The notes: generated from the letters alone by a model not told the origin. 25,720 nt of DNA from a virus (IMGVR_UViG_2531839527_000012); one strand, 5' to 3'. Positions 4,203 through 15,607 are shown, numbered from the stretch's first letter. Numbers and translations are program-made.

Positions 4203-4592
4203 ATGATTGACGCTCATGACTTCACAAGATGGGTGCGCACACAGGACACCCGTCTGGCTCCCGTTCTCCAAGGATTATATGATCTTTACATCCGTGGTCG
4301 TGACAACAGAGCACGCACTACAAAACCGGAGAATGTGGATACCCTTTATTTCACAGTAGACGACTGCTACCGCGTGGACTTCACACCACACGGACTGGCG
4401 TTGCACTGCCTGACACCGCACGGCGAATCACTGCTGGCGTATTACGACTCCCCGGCCTCCGTATTTGCGGCAATGCTGGCGCATCGCACTGCTGGCGGGT
4501 GTGCCTCGCTGAGTGAATACACCGCTGAATTTAACCGCCTTTCCACCATCTTCTTGCAGGAGTGGCAGCGCGTGACGGGATACCAGCCATGA
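4203..4592 (+). CDS. Hypothetical early protein immediately upstream of the replication gene
   Basis: 129-aa ORF whose stop overlaps the A start (ATGA at 4589-4592). No homolog recognised. Confidence 0.45.
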   Translation: MIDAHDFTRWVRTQDTRLAPVLQGLYDLYIRGRDNRARTTKPENVDTLYFTVDDCYRVDFTPHGLALHCLTPHGESLLAYYDSPASVFAAMLAHRTAGGCASLSEYTAEFNRLSTIFLQEWQRVTGYQP

Positions 4593-7429
4593 GTGAGTTT
4601 GCATGGAGCTGGAATGAACCACGACCAGCCATTGATCCGGCCAGATTTACGGAGCACAGGCAGGAAACTGAAACCGACCTGCAACGCGCCATCCGTTACT
4701 ACCTTGAGGCGGACAAAAGGGCACAGAAAGAACAGGAAGCGAAGGAAGAAGCCTTTTTCGCACAATCCGCCATGGGTAAAAAACTCATGGCATCCCTTGA
4801 GGAAGCCGGACAGCGTGAAAAGCTGGCACAGAGCATCATCAGTAAGCGCCGGGCAACAGAACAAGACCCGGTAGCCCGTGCCTTTGCCACACTGAAGGCG
4901 CTTCCCGTTTATCTGCGAGAACCTCTGAGCCGCCACCTCTCTTTCCTGCGCAAGAAGCAGGAAGCCGATCGTCAGAAAGGCAAAAAGAGCTGGCAGGCGG
5001 AACGCTATGCACGCGGAACCCTGCGCAAAATATTCGAACGTCTGGACCGCACCGACAGCCGCTGGCTGACACCGGGTTATCGCTCCCTTGCCGGACGCGA
5101 ACGCCTGGACGATTTGCTTTACCTGCCGCAGCTCAACAAACACCAGATACAGACGCTGGCCACCATGACGGCGGCGATGTTCAGCAGCACCTTCGAAAAA
5201 CTCTGCGATGGCTTTGGCGCGACTGATGGCGAACTGACCATGGATGTAACGCTGAAGGCGTATCAGATGCTGGCCCGCATGGCGTTACACCTGCACGCCA
5301 TGCCTCCACATTATGACGCACTGACAACAGACAAAGACCGGAGGAACGAACCGGACACGGAGCTGCTGCCGGGCGCAATCCTTCGCCTGACCTGTGCGGA
5401 ATGGTGGAAACGCAAACTGTGGCTGTTACGTTGCGAGTGGAGAGAAGAACAACTCCGCGCCGCCTGTCTGGTTTCCAGAAAAACATCACCCTATCTGAGC
5501 CAGGACGCGTTAAGCGAGTTTCGCGCACAGCGCGAGAAAACACGCGATTTCCTGAAAAGTTTCATGCTGGAAAATGAAGACGGGTTCACGATTGATCTCG
5601 AGACGGTGTATTACGCGGGTGTCAGTAACCCGGTTCACCGTAAGGCAGAAATGATGGCCACCATGAAGGGACTGGAACTTCTGGCCGAAGCCCGTGGCGA
5701 CAGAGCGGTGTTTCTGACTGTCACCTGCCCGTCAAAATACCACGCAACAACGGAGAACGGTCATCCGAACCCCAAATGGAACGGGGCCACCATGCGCGAC
5801 TCCAGCGATTACCTGGTTAACACGTTTTTTGCGGCGGTCCGCAAAAAACTGAACCGCGACGGTCTGCGCTGGTATGGCATCCGCACGGTGGAGCCTCACC
5901 ATGACGGCACGGTGCACTGGCATATGATGGTCTTTGCACATCCGGACGAGATTGAAACCATCGTGTCCCACGTCTGCGATATTGCCATTCAGGAAGACCG
6001 CCACGAGCTGGGCGATGACATAACTCCGCGTTTTAAGGCGGAGTACGTAGACGGCTCAAAAGGCACACCAACCAGCTACATCGCCACCTACATCGGAAAG
6101 AACCTGGACAGCCGCGCCGTGGATGGCATCGACCCGAAAACGGGCAAGCCACGCGTTGACCACGAAACCGGAAAATCAATGGCCGAGAGCGTGGAACGCG
6201 CCATCGGCTGGGCGCGCCTTCACCGGGTCCGCCAGTTCCAGTTCTTTGGTATCCCCTCCCGTCAGGTGTGGCGTGAACTGCGCCGCCTTGCCAGCCAGAT
6301 GGCACGCAATCCGGAAGGCCCGCAACGGCTGAAAGATGATGCAATGGATGCGGTACTCGCTGCCGCCGATGCCGGGTGTTTTGCCACCTACATTGAAAAA
6401 CAGGGTGGCGTGCTTGTTCCACGCAAGGACTACCTGATTCGCACCGCCTACGACCTCGCAGATGAGCTGAACGATTACGGCGAACAGAGCGTACAGATTT
6501 ACGGGATCTGGTCACCACTCATCGGGGAATCCTCCCGTGTGTGCACGCATCCGGATAACTGGAAGCTGGTAAGACGTAAACCAGAACCGGAAGACAACGC
6601 CCACGAAAATGGTTTTGACCTTCAGGGCGGCCCTGCCGCCCCTTGGACTCGTGGCAATAACTGTCCCCGTGTACAGGAAACGGACAACAACGGGACAGAA
6701 CAGCCGGAAGAACGGCCAGCACCGTGGCCGCAGCTCCCTGACGGCGTTGACGTGAATGAATGGATGCGCTCACTGAAACGGCACGAACGCCGGGCGCTGA
6801 TGCGTTCGCTGCGTGACAAACAGGCAAAAAACAGCAGTGATGAAATGCAGAACTGGACACAGAGCCGCAAACAGCCACGGCCTTTGCCTGATAACCACGA
6901 GTTACTCGCTAAAGAATGGCGGGAGTCTGCTGAATCTCTCGGCCTGCATATCGGTGAACAGCAGATGCAGCACCTGTTACGGGGCGGCAGTCTGTACGTT
7001 GACGGCAGCATCATTGCACCGCAGGGATTTGAAATTGTACGCAAACCGGATACCCGCCCGGACAGCCGAATCACGCAACTCTGGCAGCGCCTGAGCCGTA
7101 ATCACGGCGTAAGCAGCACGGAGATCCGCCATAACCCGGTCGCCAGCTATCTGGAACAGCTGGGGGCATCAGACCCCGAAGCCGCCGCACACCTGGCATC
7201 CACACTTCAGCAGGACCAGAACACCATGAAAACCCCCGTTACCGTGCTTTCTGACATGCTGCGCGCCATCCGTGACGCAGAGCACGCACAGAGAATCAGT
7301 GAAACCACTGAACGCGCCCACCGCAAAGCAGACCTGCTGCGGGGTAGCCTGACCAGTGGAAACAAAAAACAGACAGAAACGGGACTCACAAATCCCGTAA
7401 ATGAGCAAAAAACGTGCCGCGATATATGA
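4589..7429 (+). CDS. A: Replication initiation endonuclease, P2 gpA-like (HUH rolling-circle initiator)
   Basis: About 946 aa from ATG 4589. HUH motif VHWHMMVF near 5914-5925 and a twin-tyrosine motif SYIATYIGK near 6074-6091, both typical of P2/phiX-type initiators. Longer than the ~761-aa P2 A (from memory), with a long C-terminal region. Confidence 0.85.
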   Translation: MSEFAWSWNEPRPAIDPARFTEHRQETETDLQRAIRYYLEADKRAQKEQEAKEEAFFAQSAMGKKLMASLEEAGQREKLAQSIISKRRATEQDPVARAFATLKALPVYLREPLSRHLSFLRKKQEADRQKGKKSWQAERYARGTLRKIFERLDRTDSRWLTPGYRSLAGRERLDDLLYLPQLNKHQIQTLATMTAAMFSSTFEKLCDGFGATDGELTMDVTLKAYQMLARMALHLHAMPPHYDALTTDKDRRNEPDTELLPGAILRLTCAEWWKRKLWLLRCEWREEQLRAACLVSRKTSPYLSQDALSEFRAQREKTRDFLKSFMLENEDGFTIDLETVYYAGVSNPVHRKAEMMATMKGLELLAEARGDRAVFLTVTCPSKYHATTENGHPNPKWNGATMRDSSDYLVNTFFAAVRKKLNRDGLRWYGIRTVEPHHDGTVHWHMMVFAHPDEIETIVSHVCDIAIQEDRHELGDDITPRFKAEYVDGSKGTPTSYIATYIGKNLDSRAVDGIDPKTGKPRVDHETGKSMAESVERAIGWARLHRVRQFQFFGIPSRQVWRELRRLASQMARNPEGPQRLKDDAMDAVLAAADAGCFATYIEKQGGVLVPRKDYLIRTAYDLADELNDYGEQSVQIYGIWSPLIGESSRVCTHPDNWKLVRRKPEPEDNAHENGFDLQGGPAAPWTRGNNCPRVQETDNNGTEQPEERPAPWPQLPDGVDVNEWMRSLKRHERRALMRSLRDKQAKNSSDEMQNWTQSRKQPRPLPDNHELLAKEWRESAESLGLHIGEQQMQHLLRGGSLYVDGSIIAPQGFEIVRKPDTRPDSRITQLWQRLSRNHGVSSTEIRHNPVASYLEQLGASDPEAAAHLASTLQQDQNTMKTPVTVLSDMLRAIRDAEHAQRISETTERAHRKADLLRGSLTSGNKKQTETGLTNPVNEQKTCRDI

Positions 7430-7504
7430 AGCGCGCACAAAACAGGCAAAAGCGGGATTTCAGAATCCTGTAACCGATTAATTAATCAACATAAGGAAAG
7501 CGAC

Positions 7505-8454
7505 ATGAAAATTTGTATCGACGACGGCTCCACCAACATCAAGCTGGCATGGACTGAGAACGGCGAACGCCGCAACGCCATCAGCCCGAACAGCTTCAAG
7601 TCGGAATGGTCTGCGCCGTTCGGTGGCACGCAGCCCGCGAACTACATGCTTGATGGCGTGCGCTATGGTTTTGATCCGGTCAGCGATCGCTTTGTCCAGA
7701 CGACCGACACGCAATACCAGTACAGCGATGTGAATGTATTGCCATTCATCACGCGCTGGTCAAATCAGGCATCACACCACAGGAGGTGGATGTGGTTGTC
7801 ACCCTGCCACTGAGCGAATATTTCGACACAAACGCACAGCCGGACATGGCCAACATCAACCGCAAAAAAGCGAACGTTATGCGCCCGGTGGAGTACCAGA
7901 ACGGCGAAGCATTCACTATCCGTAACGTCGGGTTATGCCTGAATCCATTCCGGCTGGCTTTAAGGCACTGGCTGACATGAGTCCGTTTGAATCCCTGCTG
8001 ATTGTGGATTTAGGCGGAACCACGCTGGATGTGGCAAAGGTTCAGGGCAACTGGCAGGATCAGCCAGGTGTTTTGCGATCCACACGTAGGCGTTTCCTGA
8101 TGCCGATGCCGTACTGTCGGTGATGGCCACTAACGGTATGCGACCAGTCACCAATCGCCAATACCATTATCGAACATCGCCGATGAAGCCTGGCTGCGCC
8201 AGCACATCCACAATGACGCGCATTACGCCAGCCTGATGGCGGTTATTCGTGAAAAGGAAGAAACACTGAAACAACGCGTGATCCGCGCGCTGGCGGGTTT
8301 TTCGGGTTACGGACGGGTGATGGTTGTCGGTGGCGGGGCGGAGATTGTGGCACCCGCTATCCGCGAAGCCTGCGGAGTTAATGCGACTTTCATCGCGGAC
8401 GGGGTGCCACAGTTTGCTCTGGTTAATGGGCTGTACGCAATGGACAAGGAGTAA
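7505..8454 (+). pseudogene. parM: ParM/StbA-like actin-type partition ATPase, disrupted by multiple frameshifts
   Basis: Four track ORFs (7505-7813, 7786-7980, 7935-8123, 8236-8454) plus untracked frame segments are colinear with plasmid R1 ParM from memory: IDDGSTNIKL (phosphate 1), [12 protein letters not shown] (phosphate 2), VMVVGGGAE (adenosine motif), and a C-terminal LVNGLY. At least four frame changes; the two junctions reconstructed (near 7740 and 7930) are single-nucleotide deletions. Confidence 0.75.
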
Positions 8455-8458
8455 ACCA

Positions 8459-8770
8459 ATGACGACACCAACCAGACGGATAAGTTTCTATCTGAAGCCC
8501 GCCGCCGTCAAGAACGAAGGCGAAGCATGCGCCTGGCTGGACAGCCTTACACCAGAAGCCCGCAAAAGTGGTCAACGCGTGGCTTTTCTGGCCGGGCTGG
8601 CACTACTGAAAATGAATCCGGCAGAGGCTTACCGACTGGCTGCATGGGCTGATGATGAGGCGTTATCAGTGACACAAACCAGGACAGAACGCCCCGCATC
8701 ACAGCCAGTATCAACCGCACAGATAACCAGTCAGATGGCCGGAAATATCCGGGCGTTATTTCCTGAATAA
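8459..8770 (+). CDS. parR: ParR-like partition adaptor / ribbon-helix-helix DNA-binding protein
   Basis: ATG 8459 lies 4 nt after the parM stop. MTTPTRRISFYLKP...AWLDSLTPEARKSGQRVAFLAGLAL resembles the R1 ParR N-terminus (IAFKLNPD...LDSIP...RAALTAGLAL) from memory. Confidence 0.6.
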   Translation: MTTPTRRISFYLKPAAVKNEGEACAWLDSLTPEARKSGQRVAFLAGLALLKMNPAEAYRLAAWADDEALSVTQTRTERPASQPVSTAQITSQMAGNIRALFPE

Positions 8771-8833
8771 CACAACATCAGGGCGAGTTCGCCCTGCTCT
8801 CCACCTCAGAACATAAACAAGGAGAACGACTTA

Positions 8834-9424
8834 ATGAGCGAAATCAACTATCAGGCATTACGTGAACGTTATTCACCTGTGCCAGTACCGAAATGCCCTA
8901 TTTGCGGCGAGGAAATGTCAATTCAGCGAATATCTGGAGCACAGGTTGTTTATGCCTGCTCCGGTTATGGTGATGATGGAGATTTCAAAATTGGCCGAAC
9001 TCTTGCCGACGAACATTATGAAAAATCACGCGTAACAGTGTTGGATGTCGAGGATCCTGAAGTATTGGCGCTACTTGATTGGCTGGAAACCAAAGACAAC
9101 CGAATCGCTGAACTGGAAAAAATCGCCACTGACTATGCACTTAAATTCCAGAAAGCACAGGACGCATTAAAGTATGCCGCTTTGCTGCATAGCAGGACGG
9201 CGCAACAAACAAATAATTTTGCAGTATCGCTTCCGGACATAAGCGAATATTTCATTAATGACGTATTTCAGCCCTTGCGATACGAGCGGGATGTTGAAAG
9301 AGCCATCATAAAGGCTGGCGGAAAAGCATTGTGGCAGGAGAAACACGAGGACAGAACGCATCAGTCCTGCGATGTAAATCGTGGATGGTTTAGCCCACTG
9401 ACGACAGATAAAAATAACACCTGA
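8834..9424 (+). CDS. Hypothetical zinc-ribbon / coiled-coil protein in the P2 tin-old hotspot slot
   Basis: 196-aa ORF with AAGGAG ribosome-binding site 9 nt upstream; N-terminal CPICG...(~20 aa)...CSGYG, central helical region. No homolog recognised. Confidence 0.6.
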   Translation: MSEINYQALRERYSPVPVPKCPICGEEMSIQRISGAQVVYACSGYGDDGDFKIGRTLADEHYEKSRVTVLDVEDPEVLALLDWLETKDNRIAELEKIATDYALKFQKAQDALKYAALLHSRTAQQTNNFAVSLPDISEYFINDVFQPLRYERDVERAIIKAGGKALWQEKHEDRTHQSCDVNRGWFSPLTTDKNNT

Positions 9425-9460: not shown

Positions 9461-9864
9461 TTCTGCACAATAGTGCACAAATTTGCACAATTTTTTTGAA
9501 CGACTTTTTACCCTTCCGGCCCGCATGGCGGCTGGATCCGTCAAGGATCCGTGCGTGCACAAAAAAACGCGTTTTTTCTGCGCGCAGGTGACGGGGGAAC
9601 AGCCCGCGTTTCAGGGGGTAAATAGCATCCCCTGAACGATGTCGCAGCAACACAACAGAATGGCTGTATTTCTCACGCTGAGTGTGAAAAAGACGTGAGG
9701 GATTCGATTTGATGGGGTGAAAGGTAAGGCCGTCAAAATCGCACTGAGGCGTCGAAGAACATGCAGTCAACGCAGTGGGATTGCGTAAGAGTCTGACCGT
9801 CGATGATGGCAATAAGCAGGAAAGCGTCGTGAAATTATCTGACTGATACAGGAGCTGGAGAGTC

Positions 9865-9914: not shown

Positions 9915-10961
9915 TCAGGATGTGGGCTGGGTGTCTAACAGTGCGTAAGGGTTAAAGCGGATCACCTCTTCGCCAAGCCAGTCATTGATGTGCTTCATGG
10001 CCTCCATGACGGGCATCAGCTCGTTAATTGCGTAAACCCGCGCGGCCTTCTCCACATCACCAAACGCACTTTTTTCACCCGGCATCGCCCCCATCAGTTG
10101 CGGCGGAACGCGGTGCGCAGCCAGCACATCATCACGGGATGCCGCCTTAACATTCATGAACTCATCCTTTGCGGTGATCTGCTGGAACGGCAAAATTTGC
10201 ACCCCCTCTTTGCCCCCGTTGGGCGCATGAATGAGCACGTTTTTAAACGCACCACCACCACGTGCCCCCTGTAGCGTTTCTTTCAGGGAGTCCATGCTTT
10301 CGCGGTTTACCTGCGCTGCACCGATGTAGATGATGCACCCGGCGTGGGATCCATTGTCGTAATACAGTTTTCTGAACATGTCCGCCGAATGAGACAGGCT
10401 TGCCGAGAGTAATGCGCCAAGATATTCCGGCATGCCGTAAATTTCCTGGTTAATGTCCGGATTCATCAGGTGGCACACTTTGCCAGGGCGAAACTGGAAC
10501 GCGTCCTTGCCATCCTGCACATACCACCATGATTCAAGATCGCTTCCGCGTCGCATGTATTTCGCCAGTGCGTGCCGTAATTTAAGCGGTTCGCCGAGCA
10601 TATTGCTTCGAAGCTCAAGGAATGCGTTACCGAACACAAACCAGTCCAGCGCCAGCGCCGAGAAATCCTGCCGGGAAAGCAGCGGGTGCGGGATGTAGCA
10701 ACCGAGTAATACATTGCGCTTAAAGTAAAGCGCAGACTGATGCCAGGACGTTTGCCGGGCTGCTCTTGCCAGACCGTACCAGTCCACCGGGGTTTCATAC
10801 CACCGCCCGTTATCAGCACAGTACATATTGTCCAGCAGGTCATGCCCGGTCAGGCGATAAGGACCATCAAATGTGAATGCACTGAGCGATGATTCTTTCC
10901 TGAGCGCATCAGCGAGATCAATGCGTGAACTCATGCGCACTTTTTTATTTTTTCTGCTCAT
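9915..10961 (-). CDS. Q: Portal protein, P2 gpQ-like
   Basis: 348 aa, close to P2 Q length; position and orientation as in P2 (downstream of P, leftward). Start overlaps the P stop by 1 nt (ATGA on the minus strand). Confidence 0.85.
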   Translation of the reverse strand: MSRKNKKVRMSSRIDLADALRKESSLSAFTFDGPYRLTGHDLLDNMYCADNGRWYETPVDWYGLARAARQTSWHQSALYFKRNVLLGCYIPHPLLSRQDFSALALDWFVFGNAFLELRSNMLGEPLKLRHALAKYMRRGSDLESWWYVQDGKDAFQFRPGKVCHLMNPDINQEIYGMPEYLGALLSASLSHSADMFRKLYYDNGSHAGCIIYIGAAQVNRESMDSLKETLQGARGGGAFKNVLIHAPNGGKEGVQILPFQQITAKDEFMNVKAASRDDVLAAHRVPPQLMGAMPGEKSAFGDVEKAARVYAINELMPVMEAMKHINDWLGEEVIRFNPYALLDTQPTS

Positions 10962-12866: not shown

Positions 12867-13703
12867 ATGGCTAATGAAAAAAAGACATCCCGCAAAAAGT
12901 TTCGCGTGGCTGTCTCCGGTGTAACGGCAGACGGGCGCGAAATCAACGGCGACATGCTGAAAGCTGCCGCCACCAGTTATAACCCGTCCGTTTATGGTGC
13001 ACGTGTGAATATTGAGCACATCCTGTCACCACTCCCCGGTAGCGAGTTTTCCGCTATGGGCGATGTTGTGGGGTTGAGCACCGAAGACATAACCGATGGC
13101 CCGCTGGCAGGTCGCACGGCACTGTATGCCGAAATTGAGCCGACCGCTCGCATGATGTCCCTGCTTAACGATGGTAAGAAAATCTATTCCAGTATTGAGC
13201 TGGAACCACAGTTCTCCGTTAACGGGCGCGCCTATCTGGTCGGGCTGGCGATGACCGACACCCCGGCAAGCCTGGGCACTGAGCGCCTGAAATTCACGGC
13301 ACAGCAACGTCAGGCGGTGATGACGTTCAACAGTGTCCAGGGTGAAGCACCGCTTATCTCCGAAGCCATCGAGTCTGAAATCATCGAAATGGCAGAACAA
13401 CGCCAGGAAGAAGGCACCCAGTGGTTTAACCGCGTAATGGGGATTATTGGCCGTGGCCGCAAAGCGGATGACGCCAGTTTCTCCCGCATTCAGGAAGCGG
13501 TGGAAGGCGTCGCAACGTCACAGGCCGACATTATCGACCGTTTTAATGCACTGGAAACCCGCCATCAGCAGGACAGCCAGAAAATCACTTCACTGACCAC
13601 AGAGCTGGCAGCACTGAAGGAAAAGCTGCGCACGCAGGACGGCGATCCGCAGAACCGGTTCACCGCAACGGGCGCAGCCTCCGACCAGCTGGCTGACTTC
13701 TGA
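12867..13703 (+). CDS. O: Capsid scaffolding protein, P2 gpO-like
   Basis: ORF 12834..13703; ATG 12867 (MANEKKTSRKKFRVAVSG...) has a GAGGGG ribosome-binding site. N-terminal and central regions (YLVGLAMTDTPASLGTE) match the P2 O pattern from memory. Confidence 0.8.
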   Translation: MANEKKTSRKKFRVAVSGVTADGREINGDMLKAAATSYNPSVYGARVNIEHILSPLPGSEFSAMGDVVGLSTEDITDGPLAGRTALYAEIEPTARMMSLLNDGKKIYSSIELEPQFSVNGRAYLVGLAMTDTPASLGTERLKFTAQQRQAVMTFNSVQGEAPLISEAIESEIIEMAEQRQEEGTQWFNRVMGIIGRGRKADDASFSRIQEAVEGVATSQADIIDRFNALETRHQQDSQKITSLTTELAALKEKLRTQDGDPQNRFTATGAASDQLADF

Positions 13704-13726: not shown

Positions 13727-14773
13727 ATGAATCTGGTGATGTCAGATATTACCCGCAACAAGCTGGGTTGCTATATGGCGCAGCAGGCGTCGCTTAACAA
13801 TATCCCGGTTTCCGCACTGGTATCGCGATTTACCGTGGAACCCTCGGTACAGCAGCGTTTTGAAAACGCCTCAAAGGAAAGCACCGAATTTACAAAAAGA
13901 ATTAACGTGATCGGCGTGACCGACCAGAAAGGCGAAAAAATCCTCCTGGATACCACAGGACCGATTGCGCGCACGAATACCAGTTATGACGGAACAAAAC
14001 GCCGTAACCCGAATAACGTGGTTGATCTGAAAAACCGCAAATACCAGTGCGAACAGGTGAACTACGACACGTTTATTTCATATCCGCAGCTTGATGCCTG
14101 GGCGGCACACCCTGATTTTCAGTCCCGCATCAGCGCACAGATTGCCCGACAGGTGGCCTTGACCGATCATGATCGGTTTCAACGGCACGTCTCACGCGGA
14201 TGAGTCAACTTCAGCACCAACAAGTTGCTTCAGGACGTTAACGTGGGTGGCTGGAGCACATCAGAACCGACGCCAGCGAACGCGTTATGAATACGTGACG
14301 CTGACCTCCCGTAACATGGACAACACCGTGGCGCACGCGGGTAAGTATGCGAACGCTGATGCACTGGTACAGGACGCGCGCTCATCCCTGCTGGATGAAT
14401 GGCACAAGGAAGCGACGACCTCGTGGTGATTATGGGGCGCAACCTGTTTAACTCGCTGCGTCTGCCCGTGCTGAACAGCATCAGCGGCCAGAATCCCAAT
14501 GCGGAATTACTCGCCGGGCAGCTCATTCTGTCATCGCGCACCATTGGCGGGCTGGGCGTGTTCCTTGCGCCGTTCTTCCCGGATTCAACGATGCTGGTCA
14601 CCTCGTTCAACAACCTGTCGATTTACTGGCAGAAAGGTTCAATGCGTCGTCTGATGAAAGACGAACCGGAATACAACCGCATCGCCACCTACCAGTCCAT
14701 CAATGACGCTTATGTCGTTGAAGACTATGGCAAGTGCGCGATGGTCACTGGCCTGAAGTTCGCCGACAGCTAA
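13727..14773 (+). pseudogene. N: Major capsid protein, P2 gpN-like, frameshifted
   Basis: First 159 codons (13727-14203) are colinear with P2 N (FTVEPSV, RINV, KGEKI, NKYQCEQVNYD). The protein then continues across several frame switches between 14169 and 14430 (MIGFNGT / STNKLLQDVNVGGW / ERVMNT), and the last 125 codons (14399-14773) match the P2 N C-terminus (NLSIYW, YVVEDY). Confidence 0.85.
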
Positions 14774-14818: not shown

Positions 14819-15607
14819 ATGATTACTCCTGCACAACAACACTGGCAGAACGTGATGGCACAGCGCGCAGGCCGGGCGAATGAAGGCGTGGACCACGCCG
14901 CGCGTACCGCGCATGAAGAGGTGCTGTATCGTCTGCGTCTGGCACAGGCCCGGCTTAAGGGCGTACAGGCCAGAAGCGCGAAAGCCGCCATCAAAAAAGA
15001 GTTGTTGCCGGATTTTTCCGGCTGGATTGAGGGAACGCTGGAGGCTGACGGCGGGCAGCAGGATGAAGTGATTGCCACGCTGATGGTGTGGGCGATTGAC
15101 TGGGCGATCTTCCGCTTGCGTGCGTATGGGCGTATGTGGTCCGTCAAACCTCATCATGCCGGATAACTTTGGCCGTACTGCTGCCACGGTACTGACCGAA
15201 GAAATCTGAACCGGTACTGACGCAGGCCGGGACGGATGCGACGCGGATTTGTCCGCCTTTATCGAACCACTGGACACCCTCCGGGAGATTGTCACGACCA
15301 GGACATGCCGGACGAAGTGCGCGCCAAATTATGCAAGCGTGCGCTTTGCCCGTCGTGGTCTGACCGATGCAGGCAACATGGCCTTATCACTGAAGCTGCT
15401 GCGCGAAGCGATGCACCTGAACCCGAACGCAGGTGTGAAACGCGAGATTGCAACCCTTTCCCGCGCCCTGAAAAAAGCCGATTCCGCAGCCGACCAGAAG
15501 ACGCCAGCGCACAGCAGGCGCAGGACGAAAGCAGCAAAAGTAAAAAGACAACGCGGAAGCCTGCAACACGAAAAACCACCGCGACGCAGAAGGCGAAGCG
15601 CGGTTAA
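14819..15607 (+). pseudogene. M: Terminase small (endonuclease) subunit, P2 gpM-like, frameshifted
   Basis: N-terminal 115 aa (14819-15166) match P2 M (KKELLPDFSGWIEG, QDEVIATLMVW); later segments lie in two other frames (MPDEVRAKL in 15236-15607; AGVKREIATLSRALK in 15249-15614). Confidence 0.8.

Follow-up and report, generated by a model that had tools for sequence, protein, structure and literature searches.

Parity of a P88-like parMR cassette in a P2-family prophage of Escherichia coli with its relatives and a probably artefactual break in parM

INTRODUCTION

Directly after the replication gene A of a P2-family prophage of Escherichia coli, the gene for an actin-like segregation ATPase, parM, is interrupted in its reading frame and is followed by an open parR. 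The question raised by this locus is whether a partition module has decayed there, with one of its two genes retained, or whether the interruption has another source. The stretch of DNA analyzed, referred to here as the window, comprises 25,720 nucleotides of a viral record (IMGVR_UViG_2531839527_000012). A sequence-only reading of the window had taken parM to be decayed and ParR to be possibly kept as a DNA-binding regulator, and had regarded type II partition systems as foreign to integrated P2-like phages. The analysis reported here leads us, with good confidence, to a single explanation for the whole locus, namely an ordinary P88-like parMR cassette that likely has a partition function and in which the break in parM is artefactual.

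RESULTS

Genomic context of the parMR locus

The window is filled by a P2-family prophage, which aligned as one 25.7-kb HSP with 98.98% identity to the btuC-adjacent prophage of E. coli E1739. Genes occur in the order integrase, C/cox, early genes, gene A, a variable region, and then portal, terminase, capsid, and tail; this colinear P2-type order, combined with high nucleotide identity to P88-like genomes, places the prophage among the P88-like phages (Xuanwuvirus). The colinearity with the E1739 prophage also upholds the initial view of the window as an integrated P2-like prophage. Gene A corresponds to the annotated "replication endonuclease" of the comparison locus (L003 16160-19000) and is the last conserved early gene ahead of the variable gpA-gpQ hotspot, a region that has been defined for P2-like prophages and in which anti-phage systems abound (Rousset et al. 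2022, PMC9122126). The parMR genes lie within this hotspot, between gpA, which ends at 7429, and the minus-strand portal gene (9915-10961), and thus occupy, directly after gene A, the slot of P2 tin/old, as had been proposed. The ead/Ea22-like gene found 3' of parR is variable hotspot cargo, its place being taken by other genes in P88, Shae_phiSM, and 569R5. Features of the locus are as follows.

4589-7429, plus strand: gene A (P2-type replication endonuclease), an intact ORF, with PF05840 Phage_GPA on the source contig
7363-7400 and 7436-7473, no strand: two copies of a 38-nt direct repeat, from a repeat search
7380-7397 and 7453-7470, no strand: 18-bp palindromes CGGGAyTnnnnAATCCyG, 73 bp apart, within the 38-nt repeats
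7505-8454, plus strand: parM, R1-type actin-like segregation ATPase, frame interrupted in the record, from ORFs, Pfam, and the match to 1mwk
7738-8181, plus strand: parM deletion patch with 10 lost bases, from alignment to E1739 and eight alleles
8459-8770, plus strand: parR, a 103-aa adaptor of the Plasmid_stab_B / ParR family, intact (PF10784, 86 bits)
8779-8796, no strand: G+C-rich hairpin directly 3' of parR, terminator-like on the minus-strand reading only
8834-9424, plus strand: ead/Ea22-like gene (PF13935, 111 bits)

Identity of ParM and ParR

The parM frame opens at an ATG at 7505, reading MKICIDDGSTNIKL..., and ends at a TAA at 8452-8454. As deposited, the frame is interrupted by nine deletion events and is split over five ORF pieces (7505-7813, 7786-7980, 7935-8123, 8120-8236, and 8236-8454); when the missing bases are filled in, it becomes an open frame of 319 aa. 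The intact ParM homologue of E1739, also 319 aa, matched Pfam from end to end (PF06406 StbA_N at 274 bits and the ParM C-terminal domain PF21523 at 229 bits), and the structure of R1 ParM (PDB 1mwk) aligned to it over residues 2-316 (315 residues) with an E value of 1.8e-93. Actin-fold motifs are visible in the ParM pieces of the window, and these fragments carry the same Pfam matches in the source annotation. The parR gene starts with an ATG at 8459, 4 nt past the parM stop, and runs as a clean 103-codon ORF to 8770. With a score of 86 bits (cut-off, 25), its product fell into PF10784 Plasmid_stab_B, the family of R1 StbB/ParR, and it also matched PHROG 2515 "partition protein" at 1e-58; PHROG families with this annotation match both ParM and ParR. 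By exact-sequence cluster look-up, the ParR of the window is identical to a protein found on at least 1000 contigs.

Searches with other resources added little to these assignments. No solved structure was found for ParR by sequence, NCBIfam profiles gave sub-threshold matches only, a search of Rfam returned no match, and PADLOC defence models had no match for ParM, ParR, or the Ea22-like protein. As judged by gene identity, parM-parR is a bona fide type II (R1-like) partition pair. Both a ParM-like ATPase with actin-fold motifs and an intact ParR-like gene 4 nt downstream had been recognized in the sequence-only reading, and the protein and HMM searches gave significant family matches for each.

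Distribution of the module

The 1.4-kb module was found at 94 to 98% nucleotide identity in 14 phage records, including P88, where it corresponds to gp17/gp18; Citrobacter phage PhiSM and other Xuanwuvirus members are also carriers, and it lies after gene A in all of them. Among 5426 complete E. coli genomes, 1307 (24%) carry the module, O157:H7 EDL933 included, at 1455 places, 1453 of which are chromosomal; about one carrier in nine (~11%) has two to three copies. When 45 of the E. coli matches were sampled evenly, all 45 proved to be annotated as ParM plus a "plasmid partitioning/stability family protein." In an analysis of 18,150 gpA-gpQ loci, a putative plasmid partitioning system was reported in about one-quarter of E. 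coli P2-like prophages (Rousset et al. 2022, PMC9122126), and the module is listed as prophage cargo in the PhiSM paper (PMC6456863). The parMR module is therefore ordinary, already annotated, and already described in print; far from being foreign to integrated P2-like phages, type II partition genes are standard in those of the P88 type.

A search of genome contigs for distant ParM proteins recovered only near-identical copies, from E. albertii, Salmonella, and one Vagococcus assembly, and so gave no leverage on conservation of the centromere. The Vagococcus match lies on a 226-kb contig of Vagococcus sp. WN89Y (NZ_JBQPOM010000071.1), whose ParM is 97% identical to the E. coli prophage protein; enterobacterial contamination of the Gram-positive assembly is the most likely source of this contig.

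Selection on parM and parR in intact relatives

Intact parM homologues of 960 nt were compared from E1739, P88, Shae_phiSM, 569R5, P884B11, PhiR44_2, Chuche, and 520873. Both parM and parR are open in eight of the eight alleles, so that this comparison with related prophages places an intact parMR at the same slot in eight relatives. Pairwise pN/pS among the eight alleles was 0.077 for parM and 0.25 for parR. Judged from the open frames and these ratios, parM is under strong purifying selection in the relatives and the module is functional there. The ATPase is more constrained than its adaptor, which is the opposite of what would be predicted if ParR were kept and ParM dispensable.

The parR gene falls into at least three allele families. 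Its first ~20 codons are common to all of them, and the part that follows (~8515-8770 onward) is divergent, with 52% protein identity between the ParR of the window/P88 type and that of the 569R5 type; the O157:H7-type allele departs after query position 1094. Different downstream cargo is tied to each family. The shared first codons, the divergence that follows, and the differing linked cargo indicate a putative recombination breakpoint inside parR, at about codon 20. In ribbon-helix-helix proteins, the N-terminal segment is typically the DNA-contacting strand. The constant N-terminal segment of ParR would be compatible with one shared candidate binding site.

Deletions in parM

Over 1401 nt, the window differs from E1739 by 5 substitutions and by 10 missing bases in 9 events, all of the latter within parM at 7738-8181. 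The deletions lie at 7738, 7929, 8048, 8059, 8098, 8102, 8143, 8154, and 8181, with two bases lost at the last site. All 10 lost bases fall at columns that are polymorphic among the eight intact P88-like alleles (A/C, A/G, A/G, C/T, C/T, A/G, T/C, T/C, G/A, and C/T), as determined from DNA alignments of the loci rather than from whole-genome alignments. Polymorphic columns make up 9.3% of the deletion span, which gives 0.093^9 = 5e-10. Except for the second base of the 2-nt event, every lost base is compatible with a third codon position, and no common motif was seen in the sequence contexts of the parM deletions.

Deletions across the window

The window as a whole lacks 45 bases that are uncompensated relative to the closest genome; every one of these indels is a deletion, and they occur in tight patches. 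The first 7 kb, compared with the same genome, contains 0 indels and 2 substitutions. Clusters of 1- to 2-base deletions like that of parM break five to six other genes, as listed below. The at least four frame changes noted earlier in parM are in fact nine deletion events removing 10 bases, and such breaks are not specific to parM.

14158-14414, plus strand: major capsid gene, 6 single-base deletions, from alignment to relatives
15103-15493, plus strand: small terminase gene gpM, 12 single-base deletions, from alignment to relatives
16027 and 16031, plus strand: head-completion gene (gpL), 2 deletions, from alignment
17345, plus strand: DUF2570 lysis-region gene, 1 deletion, from alignment
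20565-20672, plus strand: baseplate J / tail I junction, 12 deleted bases, from alignment
21497-21580, plus strand: tail-fibre gene H, 2 single-base deletions, from alignment to relatives

For capsid, gpM, and gpL, polymorphism was scored in a panel of five references with a background of 4.8% polymorphic columns; 7 of 16 events lie exactly on such columns and 11 lie within 2 nt of them (P = 5e-6), while 14158, 14206, 14414, 15147, and 15239 are examples of deletions off the polymorphic sites of this 5-genome panel. The bases lost at the J/I junction are on or beside differences between E1739-like and PhiR44_2-like alleles. Third codon positions account for 24 of the 30 unambiguous deletions (P = 2e-7), and 39 of the 45 are third-position-compatible against a null of 0.525 (P = 1.3e-6); this bias is measured from nothing more than the reading frames of the genes concerned. 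Run length is 1 at 30 of the 45 deletions, placing these outside homopolymers. Sequencing error at homopolymers or methylation motifs was rejected as a source, given that most deletions are at run length 1 and that the parM contexts have no common motif.

Taken literally, the breaks in capsid, terminase, baseplate, and fibre genes would describe a thoroughly dead prophage; their pattern points instead to a consensus artefact. Two further patches that diverge from E1739, at 13222-13318 and 24631-24671, carry compensated insertions and deletions, and substitutions relative to E1739 number 68 in the 13- to 14-kb bin (scaffold gene gpO) and 27 in the 24- to 25-kb bin (LbetaH transferase-like gene). 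In contrast to the deletion-only patches, these two have the appearance of true mosaic tracts left by recombination.

Source of the break in parM

The record derives from APXN01000063.1, a 48.7-kb draft whole-genome shotgun contig of E. coli BCE030_MS-09 (GCA_000356385.1, a multi-contig, 2013-style assembly), on which the parM pieces are annotated as "stbA family protein." The deletions of the window were present in none of the 5426 complete E. coli genomes (best identity, 98.9%), and a 70-mer spanning four of them had no exact match in IMG/VR or in GTDB representative genomes. The exact 102-aa parM stub, by which the source contig was traced, occurred in only one other record, the draft MP021552.11, which has similar project-style naming. 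As judged from the protein, that stub shares the deletion but sits in another allelic background, one downstream residue being different; this fits a probable recurrence at a common A/C polymorphism rather than descent.

From the pattern of the deletions, we hold with high confidence that the frameshifts in parM are an artefact of draft assembly. The consensus would have dropped one base wherever two near-identical prophage alleles differ, the second allele coming from a collapsed second prophage copy or from mixed reads. At a heterozygous pile-up column, the alternative bases would be split into two gap-majority columns and then lost, and the reading frames of parM and several essential structural genes would falsely appear shifted as a result. 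Since the module is present two or three times in ~11% of carriers, collapse of two copies into one is plausible. The intactness of parR would follow simply from the fact that none of the affected sites fall within its 312 nt. With the same kind of deletion in capsid, terminase, and tail genes, there is no sign that parM was targeted or parR exempted.

The main alternative is plain low-quality sequence, that is, random dropout of bases in low-coverage or low-quality stretches with no allelic mixture. A clustered, deletion-only pattern in a draft contig is what such dropout could leave; however, random losses should strike all codon positions alike and have no tie to inter-allele SNPs, and most of the deletions (30/45, at run length 1) lie outside homopolymers, so that we consider this source improbable. 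Genuine pseudogenization, with parM frameshifted in a grounded prophage and parR selected as a DNA-binding regulator, has in its favor that parM is broken and parR open in the record, that the same stub appears in a second assembly, and that C-terminal parM fragments are annotated in other genomes. We nevertheless regard it as very improbable. Only 5 substitutions accompany the 9 deletion events in 1.4 kb, every indel is a deletion, and the sites lost are allele-polymorphic third-codon positions, which mutation cannot "know"; the identical pattern recurs in capsid, terminase, and tail genes, the lesions are absent from all complete genomes searched, the second assembly has its deletion on a different allele background, and parM is under strong purifying selection in relatives. 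Neither mutation nor random base-calling error is expected to track the reading frame or the SNP sites of the population, whereas a consensus drawn from a pile-up of two slightly different alleles does. Lesions that are nonrandom by codon position and polymorphism, are accompanied by few substitutions, and are unshared do not describe a natural pseudogene. Clustered third-codon, allele-variable deletions that extend to structural genes thus speak against a decayed parM with parR kept as a regulator, and selective retention of ParR finds no support, parM itself being under purifying selection in the eight relatives.

Deletion-only clusters on third-codon, allele-variable sites are a recognizable signature of a collapsed-repeat consensus and should not be taken for pseudogenization; strains that carry two similar prophages readily yield such pseudo-frameshifts when assembled to draft level. 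In the RefSeq record of Escherichia phage 503458 (NC_049341.1 / CP025874.1), gene A, parM, and the portal gene are each split into several CDSs; here too, poor record quality might be mistaken for decay.

Upstream region and candidate centromere

A spacer of 75 bp separates gene A from parM. Repeat and k-mer searches revealed no R1- or D6-style iteron array upstream of parM, and in particular no 11-bp array. What the region does contain is the pair of 18-bp palindromes within the 38-nt repeats, situated in this spacer and in the 3'-terminal part of gene A. The search for iterons upstream, suggested at the outset, thus failed to find an array and turned up two conserved palindromes: the pattern gave 4 strand-hits against 0.55 expected, both palindromes are kept in an alignment of 6 relatives, and only two sites with the pattern exist in the whole P88 genome. 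The palindrome pair within 7363-7473 is our best candidate for a ParR operator/centromere.

No sigma-70-like promoter was found for parMR, and no plus-strand terminator was detected between gene A and parM, so parMR may be read through from the early operon. Expression of parMR by such read-through may occur when the genome is extrachromosomal.

Farther downstream, three direct TGCACAA repeats with 10-nt spacing lie at 9464-9493 (P88 L012 10903-10930), in the noncoding stretch from the Ea22-like gene to the portal gene. The linear genome of P884B11 ends ~84 nt after the same gene that precedes these repeats. Given this end, the repeats were rejected as an alternative parC in favor of a cos/terminase-binding role, and they are probably the cos / terminase-binding region.

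DISCUSSION

Possible function of parMR

By homology to R1 ParMRC, ParM would form ATP-dependent filaments capped by ParR, itself bound to a centromere-like site, and these filaments would push circular phage genomes apart or set their position at times when the genome is extrachromosomal, whether following infection or excision or in a carrier state resembling that of a plasmid. On the strength of R1 ParMRC homology and of the analogy to AlpAC of prophage CGP3, a partition function for parMR is likely. A more specific proposal, that P88-like phages use parMR together with a minimal two-palindrome centromere to segregate or position their extrachromosomal genome, is one that we put forward tentatively, as possible but short of probable. 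A role in extrachromosomal segregation was the subject of one speculative sentence in Rousset et al. 2022 (PMC9122126), and no test of such a role in P88-like phages was found in the searchable literature. If the proposal is true, a normally integrating P2-type phage would gain a plasmid-like carrier state or an AlpAC-like DNA-positioning step in its lytic cycle.

One sequence deposited as "E. coli plasmid pZ1323PEC0009-2" (NZ_CP148288.1, 34,461 bp, circular) is a complete P88-like phage genome with integrase, cox, A, parM, parR, portal, capsid, and tail genes. Either the phage exists there as an episome or an induction product was assembled as though it were a replicon; the record shows that the circular form can be abundant, from which stable inheritance does not follow. 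Direct support for a partition role is confined to this one 34.5-kb circular record of a whole P88-like genome, nearly all places of the module being chromosomal (1453 of 1455).

An intact module need not serve partition. It could be incompatibility cargo directed against plasmids or related phages, ParR could be a transcriptional regulator, or the DNA could be hitchhiking, and for this family of explanations speak the location in a gpA-gpQ hotspot rich in anti-phage systems (PMC9122126), the lack of a canonical parC array, the almost constant integration of the element, and the division of parR into three allele families, with recombination at about codon 20. We consider it doubtful, though deserving of some weight. 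PADLOC gave no matches; both genes are conserved together, with the ATPase under strong purifying selection that a regulator-only role would not need; the only other phage with this type of ParM is the phage-plasmid D6, in which partition is natural; and AlpAC of CGP3 is a precedent for an actin-like system at work in an integrated prophage (PMC4446434). What parMR does in about one-quarter of E. coli P2-like prophages is a tractable question, since P88 can be induced and genetically manipulated (PMC5285337), but the window contributes nothing specific to it.

Comparison with known systems

Among the closest counterparts are the parMR genes of P88 (gp17/gp18) and other Xuanwuvirus members, which are the same genes in the same slot after gpA with 94 to 98% nucleotide identity; the pseudo-frameshifts of the draft record are the only difference. 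The tin/old (TO) region of P2 lies at the same place between gpA and gpQ/cos as parMR. Its genes are unrelated to parMR: tin and old serve in exclusion/defence, whereas parMR has no PADLOC match.

Likeness to R1 ParMRC (StbA/StbB) extends to ParM, which aligns end to end and has both ParM Pfam domains, to ParR, which belongs to the same family (PF10784), and to the gene order parM-parR, with a 4-nt spacer in the window. The R1 system is plasmid-borne, whereas the module of the window resides in an integrated P2-family prophage. R1 parC is an array of about ten 11-bp iterons upstream; the window has two 18-bp palindromes in place of an iteron array. Its ParR, at 103 aa, matched no solved structure by sequence.

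Outside the P88-like group, R1-type ParM was found only in the phage-plasmid D6 among 50,697 phage records. The P1-like D6 encodes an R1-type ParM with 47.5% amino acid identity, followed by a ParR-like gene (35% over the N terminus). P88-like phages integrate by a tyrosine integrase; D6 persists as a plasmid, and its upstream region is AT-rich, 266 bp long, and contains TCTCA iterons. In D6 (NC_050154.1 56240-58990), ParM/ParR adjoins what is annotated as a remnant of P1 ParA, its C-terminal third, and the region upstream of ParM/ParR holds TCTCAAAnnnnnCTCA iterons; the arrangement suggests that a type I partition system was replaced there by a type II system.

The best functional analogy for parMR is AlpAC of CGP3, likewise an actin-like ATPase with an adaptor in an integrated prophage. 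AlpAC(S) of this Corynebacterium glutamicum prophage pairs the ATPase with a DNA-binding adaptor and acts after induction in the transport and positioning of phage DNA and in support of its replication (PMC4446434, PMC5539076). The two systems are likened by function and not by sequence, AlpAC belonging to a distant actin-like family in a host of another phylum.
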